Assembly: GCA_963663945.1 (NCBI GenBank)
Contig: OY760687.1
Location: 468,555 to 532,554, forward strand
Reading direction: 5' to 3'
DNA: 64,000 nucleotides
From: Dehalococcoidia bacterium
Lineage (GTDB): Bacteria > Chloroflexota > Dehalococcoidia > Lucifugimonadales > UBA3495
Shown here: positions 2,267 to 28,537 of the stretch, in pieces
Position numbering within the stretch: position 1 is the first letter of the stretch
Layout of the letters: each line of letters begins with the position of its first letter
The notes under the pieces: model-generated
What the model saw: only the letters and a program-made list of their open reading frames with translations
Told to the model about the DNA's origin: nothing
Database searches by the model: none
Program-made: the position numbers and the translations under genes

Positions 2267-2939
2267 GAGGGCTGGAGATCAGGGAAGGAGTAACAAGATA
2301 CAGCATCGAACGACGCCGGCAAACGCCGGCATCCGCGGCGGGGCAGCAACGTTTACCCCGGATATTAGCTCAATTGGTATTCGTACAGATTTCCCAACTC
2401 GGGCCGGCAACGAGTAGTGGTCCGCGAACTTCTCGCGCCGCCAGTCGGGCGCACGCCGGCCTGATGCTTACGAGCGCCGGGACCGTTGCGAGACGCGGCG
2501 CTCCTGCCCGCAATGCGGAGCCGCGCTAGATTATCGGCAGGTGCGATGGGCACGAAGTCCAGGCCCAAACGCCGTCGCGGAAAAGCGAAGTAAATACCGA
2601 ACATGCGTAGCCGTCGGTTCCAGTGGCGGCGGTCAGACTGCGACACGCGCGTCCTGCAGTCATACCACGGCGTCGATGGGGGTGTGCAGCGAGGTCATGG
2701 CGCCGGCATCCGATGTTCGCGGGATGCCGCTGGCCGTCCCTACGTATTAGGACGCCGTCGTGTGGTCTGCCCCCAATGGTTGTGCCGCGCTCTATCTTCG
2801 ATACGCCGACCAGTTCCGAGGGGCTCCTCGGGCAGGACGCTGTCCGGCGCCGGAGGAACGTGGAGCAGTTCACGGTGTCGTTGGCTGTGCCGAGCGAAGT
2901 TTCAGCGGACCTGACAAGCCGCCCTTTCCATCCAAGGCA

Positions 2940-3004
2940 GTCATTGCGGCGAAAGCCGAAATCCACAACCCTGTGGTTTGGATTTCGGCCTGCGCCGGGA
3001 TGAC
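2940..3004. repeat. REP/MITE-like long palindromic element ('gtcattgcggcgaaagccgaaatcc ... ggatttcggcctgcgccgggatgac')
   Basis: The 25-nt arms (2940..2964 and 2980..3004) are near-perfect reverse complements, and the centre (ccacaacc ctgt ggtttgg) extends the stem. It lies 45 nt 3' of the minus-strand thiolase gene. Junk ORFs across it read MDFGFRRND / MDFGLRRDD, the usual translation of this widespread repeat class. Confidence 0.6.
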
Positions 3005-3048
3005 GTGGTTACGGGCGTCCCCGAGTCTTCACTGCCTGACCGGGATTA

Positions 3049-4365
3049 TCACGAAGGGTACTTGCCCAGCATCAACCAGCCACCGCTGCTGGGCGTGGTG
3101 AAGGCGCACAGGGCGGTCTCGGCCCGCACGGTCACCTGGCGGTCTCCAGCCGTGCCCCGCAGTTGCTCGATGCTGTCGGTGTACATGGCGGTGCGGGTGC
3201 GCCCGTTGCCCAGGTTGCCGCCGCTGGAGCTGAAGGGATGGGGTCCCTTGACGCTGATGTCCCCGGCGTAGAAAGACAGGGCTTCACCCCGTTTGACTCC
3301 GTGCCACTGGAAGCCTTCCAGGAAGAACTGGGTCATTATGGAGTAGCCGTCGTAGGGGTTGAAGATGTCCACGTCGGCGGGGCCGAGGCCGGCGCCCTCG
3401 TACATGCGGGCGGCCTGCCGATCAGTCCACATCTCCACTTCGTCCAGGTCGGGCTGGGTGGTTCGGAACGCGAAGTTGTGCTGGGAATGGTTGAGCACGT
3501 ACACGGGCTGAGATTTCATGTCCTGCGCCCGCTCGGAGGTGGTGAACAGGTAGGCCGCGGAGGCGTTGACGGGACGGTCGCAGTCCCAGATGCGGAGGGG
3601 ATTCAAGATTGGCCGGGAGCCGATGTAGTCTTCCACCGATATGGGTTGGATGTTGTGGGTGGCGTTGTACCCCCACGGGGTGAGCATCCCGTTCTTGTGC
3701 TGGTTGCGGACAAAGTGGACCAGGTCCTCATGTTCGCCACCGTACTTCATCAGGTACTGACGATGGGGAAAGATGTTGATGAAGTCGTTGCCGCCGTGGT
3801 TGCCCCACGGCACGGTCCACTGGCGCGCGCCCCGGGCGTAGTCGTCGGCATTCTCGCCGCCGCGACGGTACCGGCCTTCCATGTTGCCGGTCGGATAGAT
3901 GACCAGGCAGGTGGAGCAGACGCCGTCGCCCACGGCCTGGGAGGCCATGCCCACCATCTCGCCGATGGTCGGCACGCCGGTGGGGGCAAATTTGACGTTT
4001 TTGAAGCCCATGGTGTTGATGAGCCACTGGGCGTTGATCAGAGTCAGGCCGAACTCGGAGTCGTAAGGTGGGTCGAAGTAGGGCCGGGGCGCCCACTGGG
4101 AGGCGGTCCCACCGCTACCGCCGGCGATGTGGCTGTCACAACAGACGATGCCGTCCACCTGGTCGATGGTGACGCCGGCCTGCTCCATGGCCTTTTCGCA
4201 GGCCATGATGGTGTAAGCGCCCAGAGAGGCATCCAGGTTCGTCTCATCCCACCGCCGGTCCACCGGAGAATGGCCGTAACCGACGACGGCCACCTTGCCT
4301 CGGTGTTCCCACACGCCCAACCCGTCCCGGTCCCGGCGCCACTGGAAGTCATTGCTGCTGGTCAT
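3049..4365 (-). CDS. thiolase-like (SCP-x type) protein, partner of the DUF35 OB-fold protein
   Basis: 438-aa ORF: KVAVVGYGHSPVDRRW..., C-terminal ...FSSSGGNLGNGRTRTAMY.. It sits 52 nt downstream of a DUF35 gene, the classic pairing. Confidence 0.8.
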   Translation of the reverse strand: MTSSNDFQWRRDRDGLGVWEHRGKVAVVGYGHSPVDRRWDETNLDASLGAYTIMACEKAMEQAGVTIDQVDGIVCCDSHIAGGSGGTASQWAPRPYFDPPYDSEFGLTLINAQWLINTMGFKNVKFAPTGVPTIGEMVGMASQAVGDGVCSTCLVIYPTGNMEGRYRRGGENADDYARGARQWTVPWGNHGGNDFINIFPHRQYLMKYGGEHEDLVHFVRNQHKNGMLTPWGYNATHNIQPISVEDYIGSRPILNPLRIWDCDRPVNASAAYLFTTSERAQDMKSQPVYVLNHSQHNFAFRTTQPDLDEVEMWTDRQAARMYEGAGLGPADVDIFNPYDGYSIMTQFFLEGFQWHGVKRGEALSFYAGDISVKGPHPFSSSGGNLGNGRTRTAMYTDSIEQLRGTAGDRQVTVRAETALCAFTTPSSGGWLMLGKYPS

Positions 4366-4417
4366 AGTCTGTTCCTTTATCGCTTATCCACGAATCGGCG
4401 CGAGTCTTCGGCGATGG

Positions 4418-4828
4418 TTATTCCACCACCCGCCACTCGTGTATCAACTGGCCAGGGGCCACTTCCTCGAAGGTAACCTCCACCGCCGCGCCCACAGGTA
4501 CCTCGTAGGCCGGGACGCCCGGCAGGTTGGAGTAAAAGTTCACCATAGGGTCCTGGTCCAGCGTCACCAGAGCAAGGTTGTAGGGCTGGTCCGGCATCCG
4601 GCGGTTGAGGCGGCCGTCCTCGATGACGATGTAGGCGGCGATGTGGCCGTTGCCCGCCACGTCTGTCCATTCCAGCCCGTCGGCGGAGCGGCATACCTGG
4701 CAGGTTGCCTGTGGCGGGTACTGGAGCTTGTCGCAGGCGGTACAGTTCTGGATCATCAGGCGCCGTTCGTTCACCGCGTCCCAGAAGGGCTGGCTGAGTT
4801 CATCGGGCACCGGGATTACCTTGGGCAT
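4418..4828 (-). CDS. Zn-ribbon/OB-fold protein (DUF35 family)
   Basis: 136 aa. Has a CxxC...CxxC rubredoxin-like knuckle (NCTACDKLQYPPQATCQVC) followed by an OB-fold-like segment, and lies directly upstream of the thiolase-like gene. Confidence 0.8.
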   Translation of the reverse strand: MPKVIPVPDELSQPFWDAVNERRLMIQNCTACDKLQYPPQATCQVCRSADGLEWTDVAGNGHIAAYIVIEDGRLNRRMPDQPYNLALVTLDQDPMVNFYSNLPGVPAYEVPVGAAVEVTFEEVAPGQLIHEWRVVE

Positions 4829-5291
4829 TGCTTGTCTCCAACAAATTGTTACGCGACTGGATTACAGAACCGGGTATGCCGTCGGCTGCGGCTCATCTCA
4901 TGCTCCCGGGCAGGAAGCGCACTGGTTCGGATCAGCATGTCGTGCGGATGCCGTGCGCGCCGCCAACGCAGGGTCGGGAATCGGAGTCGTCAAACCTGAG
5001 CATGGATTGAAATGCAGTGTAGGTATGCAAATCGGTCAAGGGGCAATAAAAATGTCCGCCGAGCCAAGCGTCAAGCTGACAAAATTGGTTCCAGAACCTT
5101 TCTTCAGTACATGCCCCGGTTAACCGTTCATTGAAGTGGGGACACTTTTAGATGCAAGCGCTGGCTGATTACTACCGGTCAATCATTGGCCTGCACTGCT
5201 GACAGCGCCTGGCTGCATTGGTTACTCCTGAGCGGATTTGCGTGTTCGCCATTCTACCCGCAAAACGCGGCTTCATCCACATGGAACATAC

Positions 5292-5331
5292 CGCCGATCC
5301 GGAAGCATGGGAGAAGGCTTCCGGATCGGCG
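5292..5331 (-). terminator. strong hairpin ~100 nt downstream of the giant gene stop (possible terminator)
   Basis: Perfect 15-bp stem cgccgatccggaagc (5292..5306) / gcttccggatcggcg (5317..5331) with a 10-nt loop. No clear U-tract follows on the minus strand. Confidence 0.4.
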
Positions 5332-5428
5332 CCGCGTGCTTAGCAACAATCCCAGTCCCGGGAAACGGAAGCGTATGAACGCCGTCGTACTTGTCCCACC
5401 ACCGATAGATGGTTGGTTCAGGCCTGCG

Positions 5429-8400
5429 TCAGTCGGTCACGTTCACCACAGTGACCTCCACCTCCAGGCGGCGGACGTTGCCGTTCTCATCGCTGGCCAC
5501 CACCGTGACCTCGTACACGTTGTCGCGGCCGGAGTCGGCGGGCTCCTCGTAGTCGGGCACGTTGCGGAAGGTGAGGATCCCGTCCTCGCTGATCTCAAAG
5601 GCGTTGGCGTCGTTGCCCGACAGCGCCCAGGTGATGTCGCTGCCCTCCGGATCGGTGGCCCGGTAGGTGTAGAGGGCAGCGGCGCCGTTCTCGTGGTAGG
5701 AGAAGGTGTCCTGGCTGTTGGTGCGGAACTCCGGCGCCTCGTCAACCGCTTCCACGGTCACCACCACATCAAAGCTCCCGTAGTAGCGGCCGTCGGAGGG
5801 GCGTACGGTGACCTCGTAGATGCTGTCGCGGTCGGAATCGGCGGGACGCTCGTGGTCCGGCGGGTAGCGGAAGGAGAGTTCCCCGTCCTCGGTGATGGTG
5901 AAGTCGCCGCCGTCCCGTCCGGACACGGTCCAGCGGGTGATCTCCAGGGTGGGTATCTCGGGGTCGCGGGCGGTGTAGGTGTACAAAGGCTCGTCGTGAT
6001 TCTCCTGCACGGTGATTTCGTCGCAGTCCTCAAATTCAACGTCCAATACGGTGTCAGATTCGGTTTCCGTGCAGCCGATGATCTCCGGCCCCTCGTTCAC
6101 GTCGGTTAACGTCACGGTGACATCGAGGCGGGCGGTGTTCGAACTTGCGTCCGTCGCTTCCACCGTCACCTGGTAGTCGTTGTCCTGGTCGAAATCGGCT
6201 TCCGCGTCAAAGTCCGGCGGTTCCGCGAAGGTCAGCGCTCCGCGTTCGCTGATTTCAAACTTGCTCACGTCGTTTCCCGACACCGACCACGTAACTGCGG
6301 CTCCCTCGGGGTCGGTGGCCGAGTAGGTGTAGAGGGACGATGTGCCGTTCTCCCGGTAGGTGAATGTGTCGCGGCTGCCGGACCGGAATTCGGGGGCCTC
6401 GTCCACCGCCTGGACAGTGACCACCACCTCGTAGTAGCCGTACACGGCACCGTCGGAGGCGCGCACGGTTACTTCGTAGACGTTGTCGCGGTTGGAGTCG
6501 GCGGGACGCTCGTGGTTGGGCGAGTAGCGGAAGGTGAGTTGCCCGTCGGAGTCGATGGTGAAGTCTCCGCCGTCCCGGCCGCTGGTGCTCCAGCGGGTGA
6601 TGTTGGCGCCGGTGTCCTCCGGATCGATGCCGGTGTAGGTGGCCAGCACCCGGTCGGTCGCCGTGTTCTCGTCAAAGGTCAGGCTCTGTGCGCCCGAGAT
6701 GTCCGGTCCCTCGTTGACCGCGGTGATGGTGATGGTCGCGTCCAGGATGCCCTCGTTGGACCCGTCTGAGGCCACGACCGTGATTTCGTACACGTTGTCG
6801 GAGTTGGAATCGGCGGGACGTTCGTAGTCCGGTGGGTTTCTGAATGTCAGTTGGCCGTCCGGGTTGATGGCGAAGTCGTTGCCGTCCGTGCCTCTGACCG
6901 ACCAGGTGATTACGGTACCCAGGTCCATGTCGGTGACCCGATAGGTGTACAGAGTGGACGCGGTGTTTTCGCGGAAGGTGAGGGTGCTACTACCGGTGAC
7001 AACCGGAGCCGACTCGTTCTGGTCCGTGACCGTTACCGTGACCTCCAGGGACCCGTAGTAGCGGCTGTCGGAGACCTGCACCGTCACCAGGTACTCGTTG
7101 TCGCGGTTGGAGTCGGCGGGGCGGTCGTAGTCCGGCGTGTTGCGGAAGGAGAGCACGCCATCCTGGCTGATGGTGAAGTCGCCGCCGTCGGTCCCGGACG
7201 TTCGCCAGTTGGTCACCGTGATGCTCGGGTCTTCCGGGTCGGTCGCGGTGAAGGCCGCGCCGCTGAGTTCCTGGCCCTCGAGCACGGTGTAGTTGGTCCT
7301 GCCGGAAATTTCCGGCCCCTCGTCCACTGCAGTCACGGTGACCGTGACGTCCAGGCTCGATGAGCGGCCGCCGATGTCCGTCGCCACCACGGTCAGGTTG
7401 TACTCGTTGTCACGACCCGAGTCGTCGGGATCTTCGTAGTCCGGCGGACTGAGGAATACGAGGCCGTCGCGGTCGTTGAACGCAAAGAGATGACCGTCGG
7501 TTCCTCCGGTGGTCCAGGTGATCACGTCGTCCTTGTCCTGGTCCGTGGCGCGGTAGGTGTAGAGGACCGAGGTACCTTCCTCCCGGTAGCTGAAGGACGC
7601 GCGGCTGCCGCTGCTGATGACCGGATCGTGCTCGTTCACGTTGCTGACCGTGATTGTGACGTCCAGGCTGCCGTAGGTGCGCCCATCGTAGGCCCGCACT
7701 GTGATCCGGTACTCGTTGTCACGGTTGGAGTCGGCCGGCCGGTCGTAATCCGGCGTGTTGCGGAAGGTGAGCGCCCCGTTTTCATCAATCAGGAAGTCTC
7801 CCCCGTCGCTGCCGGAGAGGGACCAGCGGGTGATGGGCTGGCCTTCAGGGTCGATGGCGGAGTAGGTGGCCAGTACCAGGGTCGAGTCGCGGTTCTCCTG
7901 TACGTCGATGGTTTGCCGACCCGTTACCAACGCTCCCTCGTTCTGGTCGGTGACGGTGACGGTCACCGGCAGTTCGCCGATATTGAAATTGGCGTCGCGG
8001 GCCTGCACCGTGACGAGGTACTCGTTGCCGTCCGCGCCGGAACCGGCGGGGAGGTCAAAGTTCGGCGGCGACGCGAAGGTCAGCACGCCCCGGCCGCTGC
8101 TGTCCGTGGTGATGGTGAAGTCGCTGGCGTCCGGCCCGCCCAGGCGCCAGGTGAAGTCGTCGTCCTCCGGGTCGGTGGCCCGGTAGGTGTAGAGGTGCGT
8201 GGTGACCGGCGTATTCTCCCGGAAACTCAGACTGTCCTGTCCGGTGATCTCCGGCCCCTCGTTCACCGCCAGCACCGTCACCGTCACGTCGAAGGTTCCG
8301 TAGTTCCGGCCGTCATAGGCGCGGACGGTCACCTCGTAGACGTTGTCCCGGTTGTAGTCCGCCGGGCGCTCGTAGTTCGGCAGGTAACGGAAGGTCAGCG

Positions 8401-11400
8401 TTCCCGTCTCCCGGTCGATGGTGAAGTCGCCGCCGTCCCGGCCCGTGACGCTCCAGGTGATGGTGGTGGCCACGCCGCCAATCGCCTCGGGATCCCGGGC
8501 GGTGTAGGTGGTACTGGACCCTGCCTGATTGTCACCCAATGCCTGGTTCTCGCTGACGGTGAAGGCGGAAGTGCCCGACACCACCGGCCCCTCGTTCAGC
8601 GCGGTGACGGTCACCGTTACAGCCAGGGTGCCCTGCAGGCCTGCCGCGTCGGTGGCCACCACCTCCAGGTTGTAGATGTTGTCCCGATCACTATCTGCCG
8701 GGTTCTCGTAGTCCGGCGCGATGGCGAAGGCCAGCAGTCCCCGGCCGCTGCTGTCGCGGGTGATGACAAAGTCCCCGCCATCCGTACCACCCGTTGACCA
8801 GGCGATGGTGTCGCCCAGGTCGGAATCGGTGGCTCGGTAGGTGTAGATGGTGGAGACGGTGTTCTCCTGAACGGTGCGGGCCGTGCTGCCGGTGACCACC
8901 GGCGCGCCCTCGTTGATATTGGTGACCGTCACCACCACGTTCAGGTAGCCGTAGGCCCGGCTGTCGTGGCCCCGGATCGTGAGTTCGTAGACGTTGTCCC
9001 GGTCCGAGTCCGCCGGCCGGTCGTAGTCCGGCGTGTACCGGAAGGACAGCGCCCCGCTGTAACGGTTGATGACGAAGTCGCCGCCGTCCCGTCCGGAGAG
9101 CGACCACTGCGGATAGACCCGGCGTCCGTCCTTGGCGTCGGTGCCGGTGTAGGTCCCCAGCGCCTGAGTGATGTCATAGTTCTCCTCCACTGTGAAGGAT
9201 GTGGTTCCCGCGATCAACGGGCCCTCGGACTGGTCGGTGATGGCGATGGTGGCCGGGACGGTGTCCCGCAGGCCCCGGTTATCGGCGGCCACCACCATGA
9301 TCTCGTAAACGTTGTCGCGGTCGGCGTCCACCGGGATCTCCAGGTCCGGCAGCCGGCGGAAGGTCAGCATCCCGTTGTAGATGGCGAAGTCGCCACCGTC
9401 CGTGCCCTCCACCGACCACCGGATTACGTCGCCAACGTCCTGGTCAGTGGCCCGGTAGGTGTAGACAGTGGACGTCGAGTTCTCCCGGATGGTGAACTCG
9501 GTGCGGCTGGTGGTGGTGATCACCGGCGCTTCATTCACCTCCGTCACGGTGACCAGCAGCGGCTCTTCCACCATGCCGTAGACCCGGCCGTCGTAGGCGC
9601 GCACCGTCACCTCGTAGGTGTTGTCGCGGTCGGCGTCGGCCGGGCGCTCGTAGTCCGGCGAGTTGCGGAACCGCAGTTCGCCCAGGGCGCTGACCACGAA
9701 GTCGCCGGCGTCCCGTCCGGTGGCGCTCCACTGGTAGATACCGGCCGTGGGGTTTTCCGGGTCCCGCGCCGTGTACCGGGCCAGGACCGCGGTGTCGGCG
9801 TAGTTTTCCGGCACGCTGGTGGTGGCTGCTCCCGCCAGCGTTATAACCGGACCCTCGTTGACGTCGGTGACGGTGATGATGAAGGACACCAGGTCGCGGT
9901 TGCCGTCAGCGTCGGTGGCCGCCACCGTCAGTTCGTAGTTGTTGTCCCGGTCCGCATCAACCGGATTCTCAAAGTCGGGCGGAGTGACGAAGGTCAGCAC
10001 CCCCCGGCCGCTGCTGTCCGCGGCGATGGTGAAGTCCAGAGCGTCGGCGCCCTGCAGGGACCAGCCGATGGTCTGCCGCTGCGGGTCGCTGGCGGAGAAG
10101 GTGTAGACCGTGGTGGTACGGTTTTCCTGGTAGGTGGACGGCGGGCGCCGCGTGCTGATGGTGGGCTCCACGCCCTCGTTGTGGTTGGTCACCGTGAGGG
10201 TGAAGGACACCCGGTCGCTGTAACCCTCCTCGTCCGTGGCCACCACCGTCAGCTCGTAGACGTTATCCCGGTCGGCGTCGGCGGGGTTCTCGAAGTCCGG
10301 CGTGCTGTTGAAGGTCAGCGCGCCCGCCTCGCTGATGCTGAAATCGCCGGCGTCGATCCCGGTCAGCGACCATGCGATCACGCCGCGCTGGGGGTCGCTG
10401 GCCCGGAAGGTGTACACCGTGGTCGTGCGGTTCTCCTGGTACGTCGGCGGCGGACGCCGCGTGCTGATGGTGGGCTGGACGCCCTCGTTGTGGTTGGTGA
10501 CCGTGACCGTGACCTCGAGTGTGGCGCTGTTGAACTCGGGGTCACGGGCCTCGATGGTGACGTCGTAGATGTTGTCCTGGTCGGCATCGGCGGGGCTCTC
10601 AAAGTCCGGCGTGCTGGTCTCCGCGAAGGAGAACCGGCCCTGCTCGTCGATCGCGAAGTGCCGGCCGTCGGCTCCGCCGGGCGTCCACGTCACCGCCCCT
10701 CCCTCCGGGTCGGTCGCCCGGAAGGTGTGCAGTGAGTAGACCCGGTTTTCCTGCTGGCTGAAAGTCGTCCGACTGGTGGTGGTGATCACCGGCGCCTCGT
10801 TGACATCCGTCACCGTCACCACCTGCACCTCTTCCAGCGTCCCCGTGTTCCGACCGTCCGACGCCCGGATCTCCACCTCGTAGACGTTGTCCCGGTTGGA
10901 GTCCGCCGGCCGCTCGTAGTCTGGCGCGTTCCGGAACCGCAGCTCGCCCAGCGCGTTCATCACGAAGTCTCCGCCGTCGCGTCCCGACGGGCTCCACTGC
11001 GTGATCCGCACGCCCGGCCGCTCCGGGTCCGCAGCCGTGTAGGTGGCCAGCACTTCGGTTGTAGGATGGTTCTCCGGCACGCTGCCCGGAGGACTGCCGG
11101 ACAGGCTACCCTGGCGTGTGATCACCGGCCCCTCGTTCACTTCGGTGACCAGCACCGTCACCGTCAGGCTGCCGGTGTTCGCCTCAGGGTCCTGGGCCTG
11201 GATGGTCACGTTGTAGACATTGTTGCCTCCTGCGTCTCCGGGGGCGTCAAAGTCCGGCGGACGGTCCTCCCGGAAGGAGAATTGCCCTCGCTCATCTATG
11301 GTGAAATGGCTGCTGTCCGCGCCGCCCACCGACCAGCTGACTGTCCCGCCCTCCGGATCCGTGGCGCTGTAGGTGTACAGCCGGGTGGCCCGGTTCTCGG

Positions 11401-14400
11401 GCTGGGTGAATGACGTACCGCTGCCGTTCCTGAACTCGGGCGCTTCGTTCACGTCGGTGACGGTGACGGTTACCGCATAGGAACCCGTGTTCCTCCCGTC
11501 GTAGGGCTGGATGATCGCCTCGTACACGTTGTCCCGGTCGGAGTCGGCCGGACGCTCGTAGTCTGGAAGGCTACGGAAGTACAGCGTGCCGCCTTGGGTG
11601 ATGAAGAAGTCACCGCCGTCCCGGCCGCCCACGCTCCAGCGGGTCACGTAGAAACCCTCGGGGTCGCGGGCCGTATAGGCGGCGCCCGACAGATTACGGT
11701 TCTCGGCGATTGTGAAACTTGCCGTCCCCGTGACCTCCGGCCCCTCGTTCACGTCCGTCACGGTTACGGCGACCTCCAGCGACGCGCTATGCGTGCCGTC
11801 GCCGGCCTGCACCGTCACGCTGTAGACGTGACCCTGTCCCGATACGGCCCGCGCCTCAAAGTCCGGCGGGCTGGTCGCGCTGAAGTAGAGCTGGCCCACT
11901 TCGTCGATGGTGAAAAAGCGGTTGTCCACGCCGGCCACCGACCACAAGATGGTTGCTCCCTCCGGATCGGTGGCCCGGTACGCGTACAGCCGCGAGGTGC
12001 GGGTCTCCGGATGCGTCATGGTCGTGGCCGAGCTGCTGGTGGTCGTGATGGTGGGGGGCTCGTTCACGTTGTTGACCGTCACCGTCACGTCGAAGGAACC
12101 GTAGTAGCGACCGTCGTAGGGCCGCACCTCCAGCTCGTAGATGTTGTCCCGGTTGGAGTCTGCCGGCCGCTCGTAGTCGGGCAGGTTGCGGAATGTGAGC
12201 ACGCCGGACTCGTTGATCTGGAAATCGCCACCGTCGGTGCCTCCCACGGTCCAGCGGGTCACCGTGCCGCCCTCCGGGTCGAAGCCGGCATAGACCGCGT
12301 TGGGCAGGTCCTGGTTTTCCTGGACTGTGAAGGCGGACTGCCCGCTGGTAACCTCCGGCCCCTCGTTCACGGCGATCACCGTTACCGTCACCGGCAGGGA
12401 CGCCGTGTTGCCACCGTCGTCCCGCACCTGGATCAGCGCGTCGTAGATGTTGTCGCCGTCCGAGTCGCCGGGCTGCTCGAAGTCCGGTGGGCTGACCTCA
12501 GCGAACGAGAATTCGCCTCGCTCGTTGATGGCGAAGAAGTCCCCATCCACTCCGCCCACCGACCACGTTACGGTGGAATTTCCCTCCGGATCCGTGGCCC
12601 GGTAGGCGTAGAGGCGGGAGGTCACGTTCTCGTTCTGGCGCAATGCCGTCGCCGAGCTGCTGGTGGTCGTAATCGTCGGCGGTTCGTTGACGGGCGTCAC
12701 AGTCACCGTCACGTCATGGGTGTCGTAATACCGGCCGTCCGAAGCCTGCACCGCGAATACGTACACGTTGTCGCGGTTGGAGTTGGCGGGCCGCTCGTAG
12801 TCTGGCGTGGAGCGGAACGTGACCTCGCCCTGTTCGCTGATGGTGAAGTCCCCGCTGTCGGTGCCCGTGAGGCGCCAGGTGGGATCCACGGTCAGGTCGC
12901 CGCCGCCCGTGGTCGAATAGGTGGCCAGTGCCCCGGCAAAGTTCTCCGCCCGGTCGAGGATGGACGGACCCGTGATCTCGCTAACATCCTCGACGGTCAC
13001 GGTGATGGAGTGGGAACCGTAGTACCGCCCGTCGTAGGGCCGCACTTCCACCTCGTACACGTTGTCCCGGTCTGCGTCGTCGGGCCGCTCGTGGTCGGGT
13101 GTGTTCCGGAAGGTGATCCGGCCCTGATTGGTGACGGAGTCATGGGTAATGGCGAAATCGCCACTGTCACGGCCACCCAGGCTCCAGCGGGTGACGGCGT
13201 TGCCCTCCGGGTCCGAGGCGGTGAAGGTCGCGCCCGACCAGTTCCGGTTCTCCTGGACGGTGAAGGCATCGCCGCCACTGGTCACCTCTGGCCCCTCGTT
13301 CACGTCGGTGACCGTGATGGTGAATGACAGCCGGTCGGCGTGGCCGTCCTCGTCGGTGGCGATCACCGTCAGGTCGTAGTCGTTCTGCCGGTCCGAGTCC
13401 ACCGGAGCCTCAAAGTCCGGCGGATTGATGAAGACCAAGGCGCCCGTGCTGCTGATGTTGAAATCGCCCGAGTCGGCGCCCTCGAGGCTCCACGTGATCT
13501 CCTGCCGCTGCGGGTCGGAGGCGCGGAAGGTGTACACCGTGGACGTGCCGTTCTCCCGGTATGTGGTGGGCGGCCCCCGGGTGCTGATGGTCGGTTCCAC
13601 GCCCTCATTGTGGTTGGTGACGGTGATCGATACGTCCACGCTGTCGGTGAGGCTCTGGTCATCGGTCACCACCACCGTGATCTCGTACACGTTGTCCCGG
13701 TCCGCGTCGGCGGGATTCTCGAAGTCCGGCGGGCTGGTGAACGTCAGCACGCCGCCGTCGCTGGTGATGCTGAAGTCGTTGGCATCGTCTCCCCCCAGCG
13801 ACCAGGTGACGGCCCGGCCCTGCGGGTCTCGGGCGCTGAAGGTGTACACGGCGCGGGTCCCGTTCTCCTGGTAGGGCGACGGGTTATTGGCGCTGGTGAT
13901 GGTGGGCTCCTCCGCCCCCGTGGAGTTGGTCACGGTCACCGTCACGGCCAATCTGGCGAAATTGAAACCGTCGTCCCGGGCTTCCACTGTGACCAGGTAC
14001 TCGTTGTCCTGATCGGCATCGTCCGGCATCTCGAAATCCGGGATTTCAGTGAAAGTCAGCACCCCCGTCTCGCTGATGTCGAAGTCGTCGTCATCCGTAC
14101 CCGAGAGCGACCACGTGATTGTTCCGAGTTCAGGGTCGGTCGCCCGGTAGGTGGCCACGGAGCGGACGTTGTTCTCGGCGTAGGACAGGCTCTCGGTGCC
14201 CGTTAGGGTGGGCGGCTCGTTGACGTCATTCACGGTGACCGTGACTGGAAGGTTGCCCCTCAGATTGCCCTGGTCGGTTGCCACCACCGTCAGCAGGTAC
14301 TCGTTGTCGCGGTTGGAATCCGCCGGCCGCTCGTAGTCCGGCGTGTTGCGGAAGGTCAGTTCCCCGGTGTCCCGGTTGATGGTGAAATCGCCGCCGTCCG

Positions 14401-17400
14401 TGCCCGAGAGGCTCCACGTAAATGTGGAAACGGCCCCCTCTGGATCGGTGGCGGAGTAGGTCCGGGAGAAGGTCGCGGTGTTTTCGTCGACCGAGAGTGT
14501 GGTGTCGCCGGTCACGGTGGGCGGCTCGTTCACGTCGGTGACGGTGACCTTTATGTCCAGGGTTCCAGTCTCGACCGGATCTCCGTCGTCGGTGGCAACC
14601 ACTCTCAGTTCATAGGCGTTGCCCAGGTTGGCCTCGAAGTCGGGAGGGTCGTTGAAGGTCAGGTAACCATTGCTGTCGATGGAGAAAAAGCCGGCGTCCG
14701 TGCCGCTCACCGACCATTCGGCGGTATCCCGTTCCGGGTCCGCGGCGGTGTAGCGGGTGACGTTTCCGGTGCGGTTCTCCTGCCATTCCACGTCCGCGCT
14801 GCCGCTGATGACGGGCGGCTCGTTCACGTTGGCAACCTCGATCTGCACCTGGATGGTGTCGGACAGCCCGTCCGGGTCTGCGACCTTGAGGTTCACCCGT
14901 TGCGTAGTTCTGCGTTCGTGGTCGAGGGTGGCGCTGGTTCCCACGCGGATCTGGCCCGTTGTATCGTCAACGGTATAGGGGCCGCCCTGCTGGGAGTTGA
15001 TCGAATAGGTCAGCGTGTCGTCGTTCAGGTCGGTGGCCTCCACCGGATCACCGACTGCAGTTCCCGACGCGGAGTTTTCAGCTACCGACCGCGTCGTGCT
15101 CGTGCCGTCGTCAAATTCGGGGGCCACGTTGTCGTCGATCACGGTGATGGTGACGGTGACGGTGGCGCTGCCGCCCTGCAGGTGCGCCGGCAACGGATCG
15201 GACCCCACGTAGGCCAGCGTCGCGGTGAAGGTCTCGTCGTCCTCGCTGCCGTCGCCGCTGGCGATGTTCACGGTGAATTCTTTGGTCGCCTGGTAGCGTT
15301 GCCCAACGTCGGTGAAATCGGACTGTCTGAAAGTCTGGCGTTGGGTCCCGCCGGTGTAGTCGCCGGAACCCGCGGTGCCGTCGGCAAAGGTAACTTCAGC
15401 GACGAAGGAGAACCCACTCTCCGGCTGCTTGTCCTTCGTGGTGGTGGCAACACCCTTCAGCACAACCTGGCCCGCGCCCTCGGCCACGGTGACCGGATCA
15501 ACGGCCCAGCCCAGGGTGACCGGCACGTGATCGTTGTCCAACGCGGTGGCCGTGTCGGAGGTATCCGTTCCCAGCGCGTAGCCCGAACCGGACCGCAACG
15601 CAACCGTGACCGTGCTGTTGTCCTCGTCCTCGGAGTCGTCGTTCAGCGCGATGTTCAACGTGGCCGTGCTTGAACCGGCGCTGAATGTCGCTGTGGTGGG
15701 CTGCCCGGACGCCAGCATCCGCCCGGTTTCGGACACGCGCACGTTGACCGTCAGGGCATCGTCCGGGACCCCAACCCGCGTGAGCCGGAACTCCAGGATG
15801 TCATCCTCAGCAGCGCTGGTGTCGACCGCCGCGATGGATACCGTCGGCCGGTCGTTGTCCTGGATGGTCACGGTGGCCGCTGCGGACCCGCCCTGTAGGT
15901 GCGGCGGGTTGGAGTCGACATAGTCCACCGTAACGGTGAAAGTCTCATCCCGCTCGTCGTCCGTGTCGTTCACGATGGGCACCGTAACGGACTTGCTGGC
16001 GCGGTAACGCCGGTTGCCGTCAACGGTCACGGCGCCGAAATCGGCTTGATTAAAGGTCACCGTCGTGGACACGTGGGTGTAGTCGTCCGTGGCGTATGCG
16101 GTGCCGGGAGAGGTGACAACCGTCGCGTCGAATGTGAAGCCGCTCTCGGGGCGCTTGTCGCTCGTGGTGGTGGCCGTGGCACTCAGCCTCACGGTGATCG
16201 AACTCTCGTTCACAGACACTGTTGCGGGATTCCAGCCGAGCGTCACCCCCACCTGCTCGTCGTCCCCGATGGTCACCGTCGCAACCGCGTTGCTCGTCTC
16301 GAAGTCGGGATTGGAGGAGTCCACGAAGGCCAGGGTTGCGGTGAACGTCTCGTCGTCTTCGTCCACCGCGTCATCGCTGATGGTGACGGTGAACTCCCGG
16401 GTGGCCTGGTGCCGGTACCCGCTGCTGGTCATCACTCGCTCGAAGTCGCTTTGATCGAACGTCAACGTGGAACTGGACGACGGCGCGTAGTCGTCGGGAT
16501 CCGTGGCCGTGACGTCGTCGGTGGTCACCGTCGCGTCGAATGAGAAATCGGACGGCAGCGCTTCGTCGCTGTCCGTGGTCACGATGGCCTTCAGGGTGAC
16601 GGACCCGCCGTCTTCGTTCACGGAAACCGAGGTATCTTCCCACTCCAGGGTCAAGCCGACGTCGGTGTTGTATGGGGTTCCGGTTTTGGTTGCGGACCAA
16701 GGGCCAGAGCCGCCGGCGTTCCAGCCGCGCATCTGCACGTCGTACGACACCCAGTTGGTCAGGCCATCGAGGGAATATCCTTCCCGGCTGGACGGCACGT
16801 TGGTTTTGAGCGTCCAGTTTGCGTCAACGGTCTCGTCTTCGCTGGACTCGATGAAACGCAGGTCGTACGACGTGACCGGATAGGGGTGAACGCTTACTGC
16901 GGAGGCCCACTGCACGGTAATCTTGTTGCCGTCAGGGTCGGCGGTAATGCTGGAGATGAAAGGCGGACCCGGCACGCCAACCACTGTGCGAGAGGCTGAC
17001 CAGGGGTGCTCGGTAGTTCCAACCACCGCTCGCACCTGGACGTAGTGCGACCTCCCGCGCCCCAGGAGTACGGTCGGCACGACGGTGTGTTCCAGAGGGC
17101 CGCCGGCCGTGGACGTCCAGATGGAATCGTGCTCGTACCAGCCGCCGAAGTTGGTGTATTGGTGCCGGAGATCGTATGACGTGATGGTCCCCAGGCTGGA
17201 ATCGGCTGGCGCCGTCCATTTCACGACGAACGTTTCATCGACACCAAAAAGGGACGTGATCGCCGGCGCATCCAGGGCGCCCGTGGTCACCGTTTCCGTC
17301 GCCGACCACTCGCCGTTGCCCAAAGCGCTCACCGCCCGCACCCGCACGTCGTACTCAGCCTCGCCGTCCAGGCTGCTGGCCGTGTACTGACGGTCGCTGG

Positions 17401-20400
17401 CCCCGGCGGTGGCGGAGGCCCATTCGCCGTCGGACTTGTCGGTGGCGTCGCTGCGTATGTGGTGAACCTGGTATCCGGTTATGGCCGATTTGCCGGGATC
17501 GGCTGGCGCTTCCCAGGTCACCGTGAAAGCGCCCGAAGACGGCTGCGCCTCGTCGATGCGCGGCGGCGCCGGCTTCGTCCCGTGGCCGTAGGCCGTGATG
17601 CTCCAGGACTCGAGGGTTCCCTGTTCGCCCGATACGTGGTCGGTGAGGCGCAGCGTCCACTCGCCGGCGGGGCTTTCGCCCAGGTGTCTGGCCGAACCGA
17701 GCCGCAGCGGGCCTGACACCCAGGAGAACGGGGTTGTTGTGTTGTACACCGATTTGTCGAAGTGAGGGGACAGTTTGGATATCGTGCCCGACGGGGATTC
17801 CACCTCCACCTCCAGGTTCACGAACTCAGGATGCGTAATATCCGGGACCACGTGGATGTACTCGATGAATTCGACATGGTCGTCCACGGTCAGCTTCTGG
17901 GTCACCGTCGTGCCGGGGGTGCTGCCCGTCGCATCTGGGATGGAGATGTTGATTTCGCCGGATTGGGCGGTGGATTTTCGCAGGCCCGGGAGGTTGGTCC
18001 AGCCGTCGGCCAGGTTCACTGCGGCCTGGGCGTCCACCACGCCGAAACCGTATTCGTGGTTGAAGTTGTACTTCCCGGTGTCGCCGTATTTGTCGGCTCC
18101 CTCCTCCCAGCCGTCGTTGTCCGCGTCGTTCTTGCGGGCGGAGGCGGCCAGGATGAGTTTCACGTCCCGCCAGGTGAGGGCGCTGTTGGCCTTGCGGACC
18201 AGCGCGGCCACGCCGGACACGATGGGCGCCGCCGCGCTGGTGCCGCCGAAACTGGTGGTGTACCGGTTGTTGGGGGCGGTGGTCGCGATGTACACATAGC
18301 GACCGTGGCTGGCAGGAGCGCACACCCACAGGTTTGATCCCGGCTCTGAGTAAAACGTTCGCACCCCATCGCCGTCCACCCCGCAGGCCGCGGTAACGGC
18401 GTAAAAGTTGGTGCGTTCGTCTCTGGACGAATGGCCTCCGGCCCGGGCGCCGTTGCCGGCCCCCCACACAAAGAAAACGCCCTTCCCGCCGTAGCCCGTA
18501 GTAACGGCGGTTTCGATGGCCTCCTCCCACAGGCTGGTCACAAGCTCGTGCCCTCCTCCTGAACCCCTGCTTCCCCAGCTGTTGTTGTTCACCGCCGTGG
18601 TATCCGCATGCAGGGATGCGGCCTTAACCTCGTCGTCCAATTCGCCTGACAACAGTAGGTTGTAACCGTAGATCGTTGCCCGCGGAGCGACGCCCCGCAT
18701 GCCTATGGCGTTGTCCCGGGCGGCTATGAGGCCGGCAACCGCTGTGCCGTGGGTTTCAAACGGATGGTATATGCCACCCTGGTTGGCAAAGTCGTGATTC
18801 TTTGCCGTGTCAACGTTCGCGGTCAGGTCCTCGTGCTGGTGGTGTATCCCGTCGTCCACGACGGCTACGGTGATACCTTCGCCCAGGTTGCCGCCGCTCC
18901 AGACCCCTTCGACGTTGATGTCCTCCGTCGAACCCGAGCCATACAACCCGTCATCCTGCAGGTGCCACTGGCAGCCGTACCAGGTGTCGGATATCCCGCC
19001 GCGCGGCACATCCTTGCACGTTTCCTCCAGCCGCGTTAATCCAAAGTCGTCGACAGCCAGGATGGTGTATTTTCCGGTGCTTCCCCCGACGCCGGTCACC
19101 TTCACGTAGTGCGTGCCAGCTTCGAGGCGGTGGAGGATGGCGAAGCTGATCCTATTTTTGTACTGGCGGGGAAAACCGTTGTTGAAGTTGGCGTCAATCG
19201 TGGTTCCCATATCGTCCACAAGCTCAGCGTCAACATCAGTGCCCGGAGTATTGGCCGCGGCCCAGATCTGCACGTAGGTCGTATCCTCCACGGTGATGCT
19301 GAAATAGTCCACGTCGGTGCTGGAGGTGATGTTGCCGCCGGCCGCCTCCTCCAACCCCAGGTTCAAGGCTTGTGCGTCCGCTATGGTGCTGCCCGGGTCT
19401 CCGGCATCGTTTACGTATATGTCGTACACTCCGAAGAGCCGTCTGCGATCGCTGTTCACCTTGAGTTCGTAGGTGCCCGCGTCGAGCAACCGGCGGATTA
19501 CGAAGCCCTCGAGCTCCGGAAAGAGGTTGCCATCGACGTTCTGGGCAAGAACGGCCCCGTCTTCGTTCAATAGCTGGCCGGTGAGGTTCGTGCCCAAGCT
19601 CCGTATGATGACGTCCGTCTGTTCCGTCAACTCCAGGTCCCAGGAGTCGGTCTCGCTGGCCGGATCGATCAGTCCGGTGACGCTGCTGCCCACTGTCAGA
19701 GTGTTGAGATCGACGGGGTCGGTGGTTCCGGTATAGATGCGGTCGTAGGTGTCGGGCCCGGTCCGGATGCGGAGCACGTATTCGCCGATGGCCGAGCCAT
19801 CCCCGCGGACCCTTATGTAGTAGGTCCCCGCTTCCAGGGTGCGCCGGATGACGAGGGCATCCGGGTTGGCCAGCTCTGAGTTGCTGCCGCTGGAGGTGAT
19901 GCTATTGCCGTGGCCATCGTACAGCCTGCCCACAGAGTCCAGGCTGCCCTCGGTGAAGAACAGGAAGCCGACGGGGTCCGGGGCCTGCTCGTCAGTGATG
20001 ACTATCTTAAAGACGTCCCAGTCCGAAGAGTGGTGGTAACCGTCAGATATGGCGCCGTCGGTTATCTTGCCCCAGAAATAGTTGTCGCCCATGGGATCGA
20101 GTTCACCGGAAGACGTGGTGGCCAAAGTAATTTCCCGGGCGTTGGCCAGGTTCGGGCCCGCATCCGCCGGCGTGCCGGTGGCGGTGTCCGACCACGACCC
20201 CGCGACGGCAAATTCCACCGCCCGCACCTGCACGTCGTATTCCGTATCGAGGGTCAGACCGGTGATGCCGTACAGCAACCGGTCATCGACGCCGGCATCA
20301 ACCACCTCCGTCCACTGGTCATCCGTCTTGTCGGTGGCGTCGGTCTGGATGTACCGCAGATCGTAGGTGGTGGAGGTGGCGGTGTCCACCAAAGTTGTGG

Positions 20401-25142: not shown

Positions 25143-25570
25143 TAGATCCTCTCGTTCAGTTCAGTCAGAGTTGCGATCAGGGCTGTGACTTCCTGATGCA
25201 ATGCAGAGGCAGCTTCGGCAGTTCTACTGGCTACCGTGTCAAAGTACTCATGGGCTGAGTCGTTCCGGCGCTCTCGAAAATAGAACCACTGCTCTGCGGA
25301 AGAAATTATGCCGTAGTTGGCAGCGGCACGCAGCACGTCTCCAATGGTCATCCTGTCAACGTCGTTCCATGCTTCGGCGTCTTCCAGGCTGCGCCGTATG
25401 AAGCCGTAGGCCAGCTCGTGAGTGAATTCGTAGCCTTTTACAACGGCGGCGCGATATATGCTGTGGTGGGAATGATTTTCGTCCAGGGCAACATAGGCCT
25501 CCAGGAACTGCCCTAACCGCGCGTTGGCCCGCTCAAGCGCGTCAATGTTGATTTGTCGTCGGGAGATCAT
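25142..25570 (-). CDS. HEPN-domain protein (HI0074-type nucleotidyltransferase substrate-binding subunit), putative toxin
   Basis: 142 aa with the R-x4-H motif in RERRNDSAHEY. All-helical. Visibly lower G+C than the neighbouring genes. Confidence 0.8.
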   Translation of the reverse strand: MISRRQINIDALERANARLGQFLEAYVALDENHSHHSIYRAAVVKGYEFTHELAYGFIRRSLEDAEAWNDVDRMTIGDVLRAAANYGIISSAEQWFYFRERRNDSAHEYFDTVASRTAEAASALHQEVTALIATLTELNERI

Positions 25571-25588
25571 CGGGGTGCGCCAATGCGA

Positions 25589-27166: not shown

Positions 27167-27364
27167 GGGGATGAACATTCTCCGCACCGCCGTTTGCGCT
27201 GAAAGGCGCGGATTTTATGCTCGGCAGGCCGTCAATTTGCGATGCAATGACACCCTCCGGCTGCGGTGGTAGCATAACGATGGTAGCACAAAGGCTCTTT
27301 TACTGTCAGCCGCGCGGCGCGTCCGACGCGCGTGGCAGCCAGATCCGTTCACGGAGGCAATCCA

Positions 27365-28537
27365 ATGATCAAAGATTTTTCCGTGCTCTACGCCGGCCAT
27401 GTGCTGGAAGGCGACGGCATCGGGTTCGACGGTGTTCCGGCCAACGACCGGTGGTACGACAACGACCGGCTTTCCATGGCCATGGACATCGCCCGGCAGG
27501 CCGCCGTGTTCCTCGATGATCTAGGGTTCGACATCCTGTGGATGGCTGAGCACCACTTCCAGCGCGAGGGGTACGAGTGCATCCCAAACCTGCTCATCAT
27601 GAGCCAGTACCTGGCCCAGCACACCAACCGGATCAAGTTCGGCTGCGGCTTCAACATCCTGCCCATGTGGCACCCCATCCGGTTGGCCGAGGACTTTGCC
27701 ATGGTGGACATCCTCACCGGCGGTCGCGTGGTGTTCGGCATCGGGCGCGGCTACCACACCCGCGAGGTGGAGTCCTTCGGCGCGCCCATGATCGACGGCG
27801 ACGCCAACCGCGAGCTGTTTGAAGAGCAGTTCGAGATCATGATGAAGGCCTTCAACAGCGAGTCCTTCTCCCACCAGGGCAAGCACTACACCATCCCGCC
27901 GGACATCCCATACCGCGGCTACGACCTGAAAGAGGTGACCCTGGTCCCTCGTCCCAAGACCCGTCCGGTGGACGTGTGGCAGCCCATCGTCAGCGCCTCG
28001 GACCGGGCGCTGGACTTCATGGCGAAGTGGGGGATCAAGGGCGTGATACTGGGCACGGGCGAGCAGTACGTCGAGGAGTGGGTGCAGCGCTACCAGGCCG
28101 CCAACCAGCGGGCCGGCCGAGACCTGGCCCTGGGCGAGGGCCTGTGCGTCGGGCTGTGGGCCATGGTGGACGACACCACCGCCGGCGCTCGCCGTCAGCT
28201 GCAGCCGCTCTTCGAGGAGCACGTCAAGTTCGCCGCGCCTCTGGGGATGCTGCGCTACAGCGATCAGCAGATCTCGGCCACCGGACCGGGCGGCGTGGCT
28301 CGCCACATCGCGGCCGGCACCGACTTCCAGGACGTCATCGACAACCGCGCGTGGTTCGCCGGCAGCCCGGAGGACACCATCGCCTACCTGGAGGAGCTGC
28401 AGGACAAGTACCCCGGCCTCGAGCAGATCATGATCGCCTTCCCCATGGGCGCAACCACCAACCAGTTCAAGGAGCAGATGGGGCGGTTTGCGGCGGAAGT
28501 GATACCGCATTTCAAGAAGGCTCCTGCAAACAGCTGA
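27365..28537 (+). CDS. LLM-class (luciferase-like) flavin-dependent oxidoreductase, paralog 1
   Basis: MIKDFSVLYAG..., ..FDILWMAEHHFQREGYE.., ..GGRVVFGIGRGY.. Start chosen at ATG 27365 within the track ORF 27332..28537. Confidence 0.85.
   Translation: MIKDFSVLYAGHVLEGDGIGFDGVPANDRWYDNDRLSMAMDIARQAAVFLDDLGFDILWMAEHHFQREGYECIPNLLIMSQYLAQHTNRIKFGCGFNILPMWHPIRLAEDFAMVDILTGGRVVFGIGRGYHTREVESFGAPMIDGDANRELFEEQFEIMMKAFNSESFSHQGKHYTIPPDIPYRGYDLKEVTLVPRPKTRPVDVWQPIVSASDRALDFMAKWGIKGVILGTGEQYVEEWVQRYQAANQRAGRDLALGEGLCVGLWAMVDDTTAGARRQLQPLFEEHVKFAAPLGMLRYSDQQISATGPGGVARHIAAGTDFQDVIDNRAWFAGSPEDTIAYLEELQDKYPGLEQIMIAFPMGATTNQFKEQMGRFAAEVIPHFKKAPANS

Follow-up and report, generated by a model that had tools for sequence, protein, structure and literature searches.

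The 64,000-nt stretch of DNA analysed here, called the window (contig OY760687.1 of assembly GCA_963663945.1, from a Dehalococcoidia bacterium, positions 468,555 to 532,554; all positions below are counted from its first letter), carries on the reverse strand a gene for a giant protein of more than five thousand residues, in which a kexin-like serine protease of the S8 family and its P-domain precede a long array of Calx-beta and cadherin-like units, and, directly upstream, a small gene for an exported protein, hereafter the partner. The two genes belong to a family that is a widespread, undescribed two-gene cassette, of which the giant gene of the window is a long-tailed extreme member. The reading favoured here, with a probability of roughly 0.55, is that the cassette encodes a split-prodomain kexin-like protease carried on a Ca2+-stiffened rod, with the partner acting as an external chaperone and inhibitor. 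The partner gene was absent from an earlier annotation made from the sequence alone (the first-pass annotation), and finding it changed the mechanistic picture.

Family loci were sought in one genome per GTDB species, and the 80 best loci (numbered with an L below) were inspected. At least 551 loci in the GTDB species representatives encode a relative of the head, that is, of the protease part of the giant protein, and all 80 inspected loci share a head of one or two FN3 domains, three PPC domains, S8, P and one to three FN3 domains, in open reading frames of 1,060 to more than 4,500 residues; the tails vary, being made of Calx-beta, cadherin, PKD, LRR, FN3 or unidentified modules. The combination of domains, which had at first been considered unusual, is thus a common one. 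The host metagenome-assembled genomes (MAGs) are mostly Dehalococcoidia, and the others belong to Candidatus Binatia, Ca. Multivorans, Acidimicrobiia including Ca. Poriferisodalis, Ca. Spongiisociaceae, Holophagales and Gammaproteobacteria. A protein search with the head returned 352 proteins at E ≤ 1e-10, with fn3, PPC, S8 and P_proprotein and often Calx-beta, cadherin or LRR domains. This search listed nothing longer than 1,420 residues, whereas the genomes and representatives hold members of 1.5–5.7 thousand residues, and, since the giants seem to be missing from the searched collection or were not retrieved from it, its length distribution is unreliable for the family. In the literature searched, no prior description of the S8-cadherin family or of the partner was found, although one may exist elsewhere.

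The giant protein begins with MTRVALFAAPLLAAALVLLGLLIPLNVAAQA, followed by TVPG, and consists, in this order, of a signal peptide, two FN3 domains, three PPC domains, the S8 domain, the P-domain, three FN3 domains, four Calx-beta domains and 31 cadherin-like units, the domain borders having been set with hidden Markov models (HMMs) made from the protein's own units, beside Pfam; one short Calx-beta unit scored as two HMM matches. Pfam detects Peptidase_S8 (PF00082, residues 669–949, E 2e-40) and P_proprotein (PF01483, residues 1009–1098, E 8e-15), as well as PPC, fn3, Calx-beta, Cadherin and Cadherin_4, and every domain class named in the first-pass annotation is thereby backed. Its counts of three FN3, four Calx-beta and 31 cadherin-like units after the protease stand, whereas the two N-terminal FN3 domains had been omitted. 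Its central statement, that an intact kexin-like protease with a P-domain shares one polypeptide with Calx-beta and cadherin arrays, agrees with both Pfam and alignment; its remark that no function is assigned also holds, as all NCBIfam models score below their cut-offs and the sole relative with a name bears just the label 'S8 family serine peptidase'.

By fold and motifs, the head belongs to the kexin-like S8B subtilases, minus the prodomain in cis, which such enzymes remove by autocatalysis. Over its full length, the S8 and P region can be aligned with Kex2 (1r64, E 1e-47) and with furin. The catalytic motifs are intact in comparison with both enzymes (VVD678DG, H713GT, GN812G and GTS884AAAP); Asp678, His713, Asn812 and Ser884 align with the catalytic residues of Kex2 and none is substituted, which settles a doubt that the first-pass annotation had raised about its own claim. 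The order Asp-His-Ser plus an oxyanion Asn is that of subtilases, and the P-domain lies directly C-terminal of the catalytic domain, as in S8B enzymes, according to Pfam, alignment and predicted structure. An AlphaFold2 model of the three PPC domains, S8 and P, based on an alignment of 64 sequences, has a mean predicted local distance difference test score (pLDDT) of 87.6 and a predicted template-modelling score of 0.82; its best Foldseek matches in the PDB are Kex2 and furin (template-modelling score 0.86–0.89 over ~485 residues, 28% identity), followed by the Aeromonas sobria protease ASP (3hjr) and the complex of ASP with its partner ORF2 (3wqb). The set D-H-N-S is intact in 83 of the 88 S8 domains of the family, and a pseudo-protease was ruled out on these grounds; motifs and model alike point to a catalytically competent serine protease with a kexin-like fold. 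Only FN3 and PPC domains precede S8, the three PPC domains filling the position usual for a prodomain in cis, and the Pfam scan gave no I9 or S8-prodomain match.

The substrate-binding site departs from that of furin. The furin segment SWGPEDDG reads SWGSRGSG in the window protein, and the 'GD' before SNLDE reads 'GG' (GGHSS); the equivalents of furin Asp258 and Asp301, which belong to the S1 pocket and its Ca2+ site, are Arg/Gly and Gly, respectively. In most family members these two positions are acidic. The Asp-Asp of VVDDG and the equivalent of furin Asp306 are kept. In kexin-like enzymes, cleavage after basic residues depends on acidic S1, S2 and S4 pockets and on the Ca2+ site at S1. With two acidic positions of the S1 site lost, cleavage after basic residues is not to be assumed, and the window protease is probably not specific for basic residues.

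Some family members carry two complete FN3-PPCx3-S8-P heads in tandem within one polypeptide (L007, L008, L010, L017, L032, L070 and L079). In L007, L008 and L070 the first head lacks catalytic or oxyanion residues (SR-S, DHGS, DQNA) and the second is intact, which suggests, from the residues at these positions, a pair of a pseudo-protease and a protease.

The partner gene overlaps the non-coding upstream extension of the longest open reading frame of the window (5429..21115, reverse strand), and 67 nt separate its end from the ATG of the giant gene; in two other assemblies gene callers chose the same start for the giant gene, 67–68 nt past the stop of the upstream gene. No terminator-like site between the two genes was found in a consensus scan, and a gap of this size without such a site is compatible with a single operon. 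A survey by tblastn and HMM placed a partner homolog immediately before the protease gene, in the same orientation, at 72 of the 80 inspected loci, in several phyla. The protein starts with VEMLEPFRLGLIAGLMVALTAALLGC, which holds an LLGC lipobox with Cys26, a residue at least 90% conserved among 47 partner homologs, and is laid out as a lipoprotein-type signal, a disordered Pro/Ala-rich linker of ~100 residues and a conserved C-domain of ~155 residues (approximately residues 128–282). An export signal is always present, and its type depends on the lineage: most Dehalococcoidia have a lipobox, Binatia and Multivorans an A-x-A signal peptide and some others a transmembrane-like segment. The partner has no sequence match in Pfam (E ≤ 10), in NCBIfam or in a PDB profile search; the family comprises 1,028 homologs at E ≤ 1e-5, in 893 clusters at 50% identity, and its lack of any Pfam or NCBIfam model is an annotation gap.

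The clues to what the partner does come from its predicted fold, from gene fusions and from its C-terminus. In the AlphaFold2 model the linker is disordered and the C-domain (pLDDT 85–96) forms a small beta-sheet, as an additional N-terminal subdomain (residues 133–160), and then a beta-alpha-beta-beta-alpha-beta fold; among the top-ranked Foldseek matches are the subtilase prodomains 8c4x_B, 5vlh_A (PCSK9) and 3whi_B (pro-subtilisin E), with probabilities of 0.93–0.98 and E of 0.1–0.36. In five representatives (P0307, P0312, P0310, P0321 and P0289) the partner domain is fused in cis, N-terminal of PPC-S8; the order is signal peptide-FN3-PARTNER-PPCx3-S8-P-...-cadherin in P0307 (3,846 residues) and similar in P0312 (5,724 residues). 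These fusions are the strongest of the clues: the fused domain sits where classical subtilases carry a cleavable pro-region, which fits a prodomain role, and the fusion junction keeps K or R in four of the five, as in ...NWWREVGTR/QDPGE. In nearly all pairs the separate partner ends in Lys or Arg; the partners of the window, L001 and L002 end in Gln, and the proteases of these three have lost the equivalents of furin Asp258 and Asp301. Taken together, linkage, fold and fusions indicate that the partner is probably a trans-encoded, prodomain-like chaperone and inhibitor of the protease.

Behind the head, the tail matches Pfam Cadherin (PF00028) at E 1e-77 and 2e-58. Acidic columns run through the array (E37 in 31/31 units, D56 in 30/31 and D123 in 31/31), together with an N145-E146 linker motif (...V-N-E) in 24–28 of the 31; the columns are of the type that binds Ca2+ in cadherins, are kept in 26–31 of the 31 units, and mark the units, by these residues, as cadherin-like repeats, a class with units of ~100 residues and acidic linker motifs (xEx, DxD/DxE and DxNDN-like). 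The cadherin-like units alternate between two subtypes, identity being higher at offset 2 than at offset 1. By analogy with known structures, the Calx-beta and cadherin-like units would form a long Ca2+-stiffened rod, perhaps ~150–200 nm in length if the dimensions of cadherin and Calx-beta domains apply.

The only strongly hydrophobic segment of the giant protein comprises residues 3–30; the first-pass annotation had noticed it correctly, and had considered that it might be an uncleaved signal-anchor, a view that the family does not bear out. The N-termini of the family show a basic n-region, a hydrophobic core of 12–20 residues and a short c-region with A-x-A and then Q (gyASAQ/s and vrAQat, for example, and nvAAQAt in the window). 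This pattern, found in diderm lineages too, is typical of signal peptidase I, and a signal-anchor is therefore unlikely; the N-terminal pattern indicates that the giant protein is probably exported by Sec and its signal peptide cleaved.

At its other end the protein reads ...VEVTVVNVTD and stops within the last cadherin unit, and no LPXTG, SLH, CWB2 or C-terminal transmembrane anchor was found in it. Stop codons crowd all three frames downstream of the gene, and homologs of 59% identity from other metagenomes, with at least 32 and at least 38 cadherin units and one of them from MKWU, an assembly of Aplysina aerophoba, end at the same point (...VTVTNLTD). The missing C-terminal anchor, already reported in the first-pass annotation, is thus conserved in these homologs and not the result of truncation, and a truncated gene that has lost its anchor was ruled out by the stop-filled frames and the like ends of the homologs. 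C-terminal anchors occur in paralogs, as SLH in L033 and L068, CWB2 repeats in L061–L063 and a transmembrane segment with a basic tail in L039 and L070, from which it follows that in these proteins the head lies distal to the cell and the repeats make up a stalk.

A conserved C-terminal module of ~40 residues, built of a canonical EF-hand loop and subsequent helices, for example DADNNEAIDRDEALATVVDYFSGSITQEEALEVVRRYFAG, is a feature of other members (L007, L009, L012, L015, L016, L018, L023, L024, L038, L044, L053, L058, L064, L067, L072, L074 and L078) and is absent from the window protein. It resembles half a dockerin, has no Pfam match at E ≤ 0.01 and, to judge from its residues, may serve the Dehalococcoidia as a signal for docking or anchoring that depends on Ca2+.

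The giant gene is real. An artefact of assembly, through repeat collapse or chimera, was what the first-pass annotation itself had named as a possible flaw, and the thought is natural in that repetitive genes often break short-read assemblies and that the Logan assembly of run ERR3887496, which has 100% identity to window positions 1–5652, including the 3' end and stop codon of the giant gene, has a contig that stops within the last cadherin unit. The probability of such an artefact is nevertheless negligible: Tandem Repeats Finder gives zero DNA tandem repeats across 5,000–21,500, the longest exact DNA repeat within the giant coding sequence is 25 nt, and the 31 cadherin-like units have a mean amino acid identity of 44%, with a maximum of 72%. 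Two ENA assemblies from other samples (L085 and L086, contigs of 487 kb and 241 kb) hold a 5,149-residue ortholog in the same synteny, sharing with the window the genes for luciferase-like monooxygenases, SerA, PanE, a 160-aa open reading frame, a carbonic anhydrase, a 280-aa gene and the giant gene. The complete-chromosome Dehalococcoidia MAG L001 (OZ247427.1) is collinear with the giant gene, at 87.6% nucleotide identity over 13.7 kb and 87% amino acid identity (17 gap positions among 4,456), and L003 and L004 hold orthologs longer than 4.4 thousand residues. Repeat collapse and chimera were dropped in view of the divergent units, the short exact repeats and the independent orthologs.

Comparison of orthologs also bears on how the cassette evolves. 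The array of the window is orthologous unit for unit with those of L001 and L004, with almost no indels, and identity along the giant protein is a mosaic: S8 is 98.8% identical and the cadherin units about 82% identical in L001, and the corresponding values for L004 are 74% and 73–81%. L002 (OY764869.1) shares the upstream neighbours of the window (20955–31083) at 60–97% amino acid identity, and its protease gene, for 2,898 residues, has a head ~74–84% identical to that of the window and a tail of eight Calx-beta domains plus 585 residues of unidentified modules; the upstream region of L001 is not syntenic. The mosaic identities and the swapped tail at the syntenic L002 locus show that head and tail have separate histories, and alleles and tails appear, from these sequence comparisons, to have been exchanged between lineages, in keeping with recombination or lateral exchange. 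Even so, the window array is conserved in length and sequence among its orthologs.

In the mechanism that best accommodates these data, the partner lipoprotein would wait on the external face of the membrane, and the giant protein would leave Sec head first, N-terminus foremost, its signal peptide being cut. The C-domain of the partner would then take the place of a prodomain, aiding the folding of the S8-P head and blocking the active site for a time, and the bound partner may retain the head at the membrane. After activation, the protease would act on extracellular targets, carried on or tethered by the rod, which would place and hold it on targets such as the host matrix or cell surfaces.

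Several observations weigh against this mechanism. The likeness of the partner to I9 propeptides is one of fold and lacks significance (best Foldseek E 0.07); a great many proteins have a ferredoxin-like fold, and ribosomal protein S6 and RRM domains match the partner just as well as the prodomains do. No profile similarity was detected, hhalign against nine I9 propeptides giving probabilities below 1%, a weak test in view of the small reference set. The partner is not homologous to ORF2, as a PDB sequence search was blank and chain B of 3wqb is not among the Foldseek matches. The partner gene is lacking at 8 of the 80 inspected loci. The link between the C-terminal residue of the partner and the S1 pocket comes from one clade, and a simple rule by which this residue mimics P1 fails, in that the partners of L003 and L004 end in Glu yet their proteases keep the acidic pocket residues. 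The clade of the window has no anchor, and its protein is therefore either released or held through the head. Finally, the sponge origin of the window, discussed below, derives from relatives and record names and not from sample metadata.

Part of the proposed mechanism is shared by a rather unlikely alternative, in which the partner is a dedicated inhibitor or immunity lipoprotein that guards the surface of the producer, or a docking receptor, and the protease folds by itself, perhaps via the PPC domains. The tight gene linkage and the export signal would be expected of such a partner, a lipoprotein tether would retain it at the producer's membrane, the proteases at the loci without a partner presumably still fold, and the complex of mirolase with potempin (8ehe), a protease with a lipoprotein-type inhibitor, is among the Foldseek matches of the head. 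Nevertheless, fusions in cis at the position of a prodomain, with K or R at the junction, suit a cleaved pro-region better than a permanent inhibitor, and this alternative overlaps with the favoured mechanism, since subtilase prodomains are usually both chaperone and inhibitor.

Two other alternatives concern the fate of the giant protein, and both are improbable. It could be a signal-anchored surface adhesin with the stalk pointing outward, whose protease mainly processes or sheds its own stalk; the only hydrophobic segment is indeed N-terminal and rather long (~22 residues), a C-terminal anchor is lacking in the homologs as well, and self-processing is frequent among subtilases. Yet the A-x-A/Q motif is kept throughout the family, diderm lineages included, the anchored paralogs use C-terminal SLH, CWB2 or transmembrane anchors with the head distal to the cell, many members of ~1.1–1.5 thousand residues have little stalk to shed, and the head, with its near-identical S8 domain in L001, is conserved beyond what self-shedding alone seems to need; shedding of the stalk in itself is neither favoured nor contradicted by the data. 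Or the protein could be a freely released nutritional exoprotease, whose Calx-beta, cadherin, FN3 and PPC domains bind host matrix proteins, collagen or spongin for instance, and take no part in adhesion or host recognition. The cleavable signal peptide, the absent anchor and the modular, swappable tails of the family (Calx-beta, cadherin, PKD, LRR), which recall secreted degradative enzymes, agree with this, and so do the neighbouring genes, which are metabolic and include none from a secretion or adhesion system. Against it, the 31 units are kept one for one at ~80% identity with few indels while the heads diverged to 74%, a unit-for-unit conservation that implies that the length and every single unit are constrained by more than simple substrate binding; moreover, the kexin-type fold and P-domain are, by what holds for S8B enzymes, typical of limited and specific proteolysis and not of bulk digestion.

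The habitat of the family gives the split-prodomain protease a possible context. Most of the best family loci are from MAGs of apparent sponge association, spread over several phyla. Relatives occur in MAGs bearing sponge-derived names and in the Aplysina aerophoba metagenome MKWU, and these relatives and record names indicate that the bacterium of the window is probably sponge-associated. Two studies report an enrichment of fn3, cadherin, Calx-beta and LRR domains among sponge symbionts (PMC8163846; PMC11706023), and one of the two describes lateral transfer of cadherin and fn3 genes; in the text of both that was searched, neither a peptidase, such as an S8 protease head, nor the partner gene is mentioned. 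On a bolder and rather doubtful view, the cassette would be a cross-phylum, laterally exchanged symbiosis module of sponge-associated bacteria, in which a lipoprotein-tethered prodomain in trans loads a kexin-like convertase and holds it at the cell surface, and the rod, whose domain types match those of the sponge aggregation factor and of animal adhesion proteins, engages host adhesion molecules for limited proteolysis. If this were so, the outcome would be targeted cutting of host recognition or adhesion proteins, for example in the avoidance of phagocytosis or in niche remodelling, and much of the enrichment of 'eukaryote-like domains' in sponge symbionts would represent the accessory domains of one protease family. 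The FN3, cadherin, Calx-beta and LRR domains of sponge symbionts have hitherto been read as adhesion or mimicry factors; in hundreds of loci, from at least five lineages, they accompany one kexin-like protease head with a dedicated, unannotated partner, and the question moves from what such adhesins bind to what a targeted protease cuts.

The coordinates of the cassette are collected in Table 1. The promoter scan gave one site against 0.2 expected by chance. The hairpin past the giant gene may mark the end of the transcript, though it lacks a T-run; the consensus scan gave a weak terminator-like site at 5363–5350, within chance expectation.

Table 1. Features of the two-gene cassette, in the order of transcription (positions in the window; aa, amino acids)
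Feature	Position	Strand	Details and basis
Sigma-70-like promoter match	21860..21888	-	~57 nt upstream of partner start; weak consensus match, chance-level
Partner gene	20955..21803	-	282 aa, ends ...SMPNWRQELEAQ; homolog upstream in 72/80 family loci
Giant gene	5429..20887	-	ATG at 20887, stop at 5429-5431; 5,152 aa + stop
Sec-type signal peptide, MTRVALFAAPLLAAALVLLGLLIPLNVAAQA	20795..20887	-	predicted cleavage probably VAA/Q or AQA/T; family A-x-A-Q pattern
Two N-terminal FN3 domains, residues 32-240	20168..20794	-	Pfam and own HMMs
Three PPC (pre-peptidase C-terminal type) beta-sandwich domains, residues 241-617	19037..20167	-	Pfam, HMMs, AlphaFold2
Subtilase S8 catalytic domain, residues 640-985	17933..18970	-	Pfam, Kex2/furin alignment, Foldseek
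Catalytic codon, Asp678	18854-18856	-	
Catalytic codon, His713	18749-18751	-	
Oxyanion codon, Asn812	18452-18454	-	
Catalytic codon, Ser884	18236-18238	-	
Proprotein-convertase P-domain, residues 986-1104	17576..17932	-	Pfam, Kex2/furin alignment, Foldseek
Three FN3 domains, residues 1104-1405	16673..17578	-	Pfam and own HMMs
Four Calx-beta-like domains, residues 1408-1922	15122..16666	-	Pfam and own HMMs
31 cadherin-like units, ~100-118 aa each, residues 1922-5152	5432..15124	-	HMMs, unit alignment
Perfect 13-bp stem hairpin	5294..5329	-	-23.7 kcal/mol; 100-135 nt 3' of giant gene stop

A secretion system, a sortase and a cohesin-like receptor were sought near the cassette, and only metabolic genes were found. 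Three genes for luciferase-like flavin monooxygenases lie in the 64 kb, at 27332–28537 (+), 29848–31083 (+) and 47303–48394 (-), and thiolase-like and ChsH2-like OB-fold genes at 3049–4828 (-), a content that we take to be typical of SAR202-type Dehalococcoidia. A eukaryotic-type (alpha) carbonic anhydrase (PF00194, E 4e-30) is encoded at 22360–23052 (-), two genes upstream of the cassette, and is syntenic in L002, L085 and L086; a sponge-symbiont study counts this family among the 'eukaryote-like' classes (PMC11706023). By size and position only, the gene at 24792–25570 (-) matches a nucleotidyltransferase pair of L085 (NTase_sub_bind and Polbeta, toxin-antitoxin-like), and that at 28565–29476 (+), at a dip in GC content to 0.576, an Mrr-type restriction endonuclease of L085. 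Farther away, within a low-GC stretch at ~54–60 kb (GC 0.51–0.59), a Septu-type anti-phage pair at 55325–57462 (+) consists of a PtuA-like AAA ATPase of 465 residues (PADLOC E 4.5e-36) in a one-base overlap with an HNH PtuB-like nuclease of 246 residues (E 2.7e-21); an IS4/5-family DDE transposase lies at 58692–59612 and a Mu-type transposase/integrase at 60862–62364 (-). By their predicted products, the Septu pair and the transposases look like a small mobile defence island.

Among known systems, the tail is closest in build to giant adhesins, either those with RTX repeats and type 1 secretion (T1SS), such as LapA and MpIBP, or the marine cadherin-like and Calx-beta/VCBS proteins, which likewise have tandem Ca2+-binding beta-sandwich repeats over several thousand residues, forming long rods; weak NCBIfam matches of the giant protein are to VCBS and tandem-95 repeats. 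In contrast to the RTX/T1SS adhesins, the giant protein has an N-terminal Sec signal and a protease head in the same chain; the protease of LapA-type systems, LapG, is an enzyme of its own in the periplasm. In the giant protein a HemolysinCabind/RTX domain is not detected by Pfam, the C-terminus is a cadherin unit with no T1SS signal, and there is no N-terminal retention module; the assignment to RTX/T1SS adhesins was rejected on the absence of all three. The 'eukaryote-like' proteins of sponge symbionts have their domain classes in common with the family, come from the same lineages (Chloroflexota, Actinobacteriota and others) and likewise show signs of lateral transfer, the difference being that those studies counted domains, whereas in the present family such domains belong to a protease cassette as its accessories.

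The head is like kexin and furin (S8B; 1r64, 2id4, 1p8j) in having S8 and then the P-domain with intact D/H/N/S; it differs in that the giant protein has no prodomain in cis, is preceded by three PPC and two FN3 domains and followed by a tail of ~4,000 residues, is bacterial and Sec-exported, and has non-acidic equivalents of furin Asp258 and Asp301, so that a specificity for paired basic residues is doubtful. With the I9 propeptides (3whi, PCSK9), the partner has in common the beta-alpha-beta-beta-alpha-beta fold and, in the fusion homologs, a place N-terminal of the catalytic module, and its conserved C-terminal tail could occupy the active-site cleft; unlike them, it has in most members a gene and an export signal of its own, and it has the extra N-terminal beta-sheet subdomain. 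The nearest parallel is ASP from Aeromonas sobria (3hjr, 3wqb), a kexin-like S8 and P-domain protease without a propeptide, for which ORF2, the product of the adjoining gene, serves as chaperone and temporary inhibitor, its C-terminal Lys lying in the active site of ASP (PMC5638518). Both systems combine a prodomain-less protease with an adjoining small gene for an exported protein, mostly Lys/Arg-terminated in the present family. They differ in that the partner gene is upstream here, whereas the ORF2 gene is downstream of ASP, that the partner is a lipoprotein with a long linker and a ferredoxin-like domain, sometimes fused in cis, and that ASP has no giant tail. By these analogies, the cassette may work like ASP/ORF2 and like I9 prodomains, yet it is a member of neither group; as a natural split-prodomain system, whose prodomain-like module is mostly encoded separately, is fused to the protease in some members and is often lipid-anchored, it would be useful beside ASP/ORF2 for the study of chaperone-assisted folding outside the cell.

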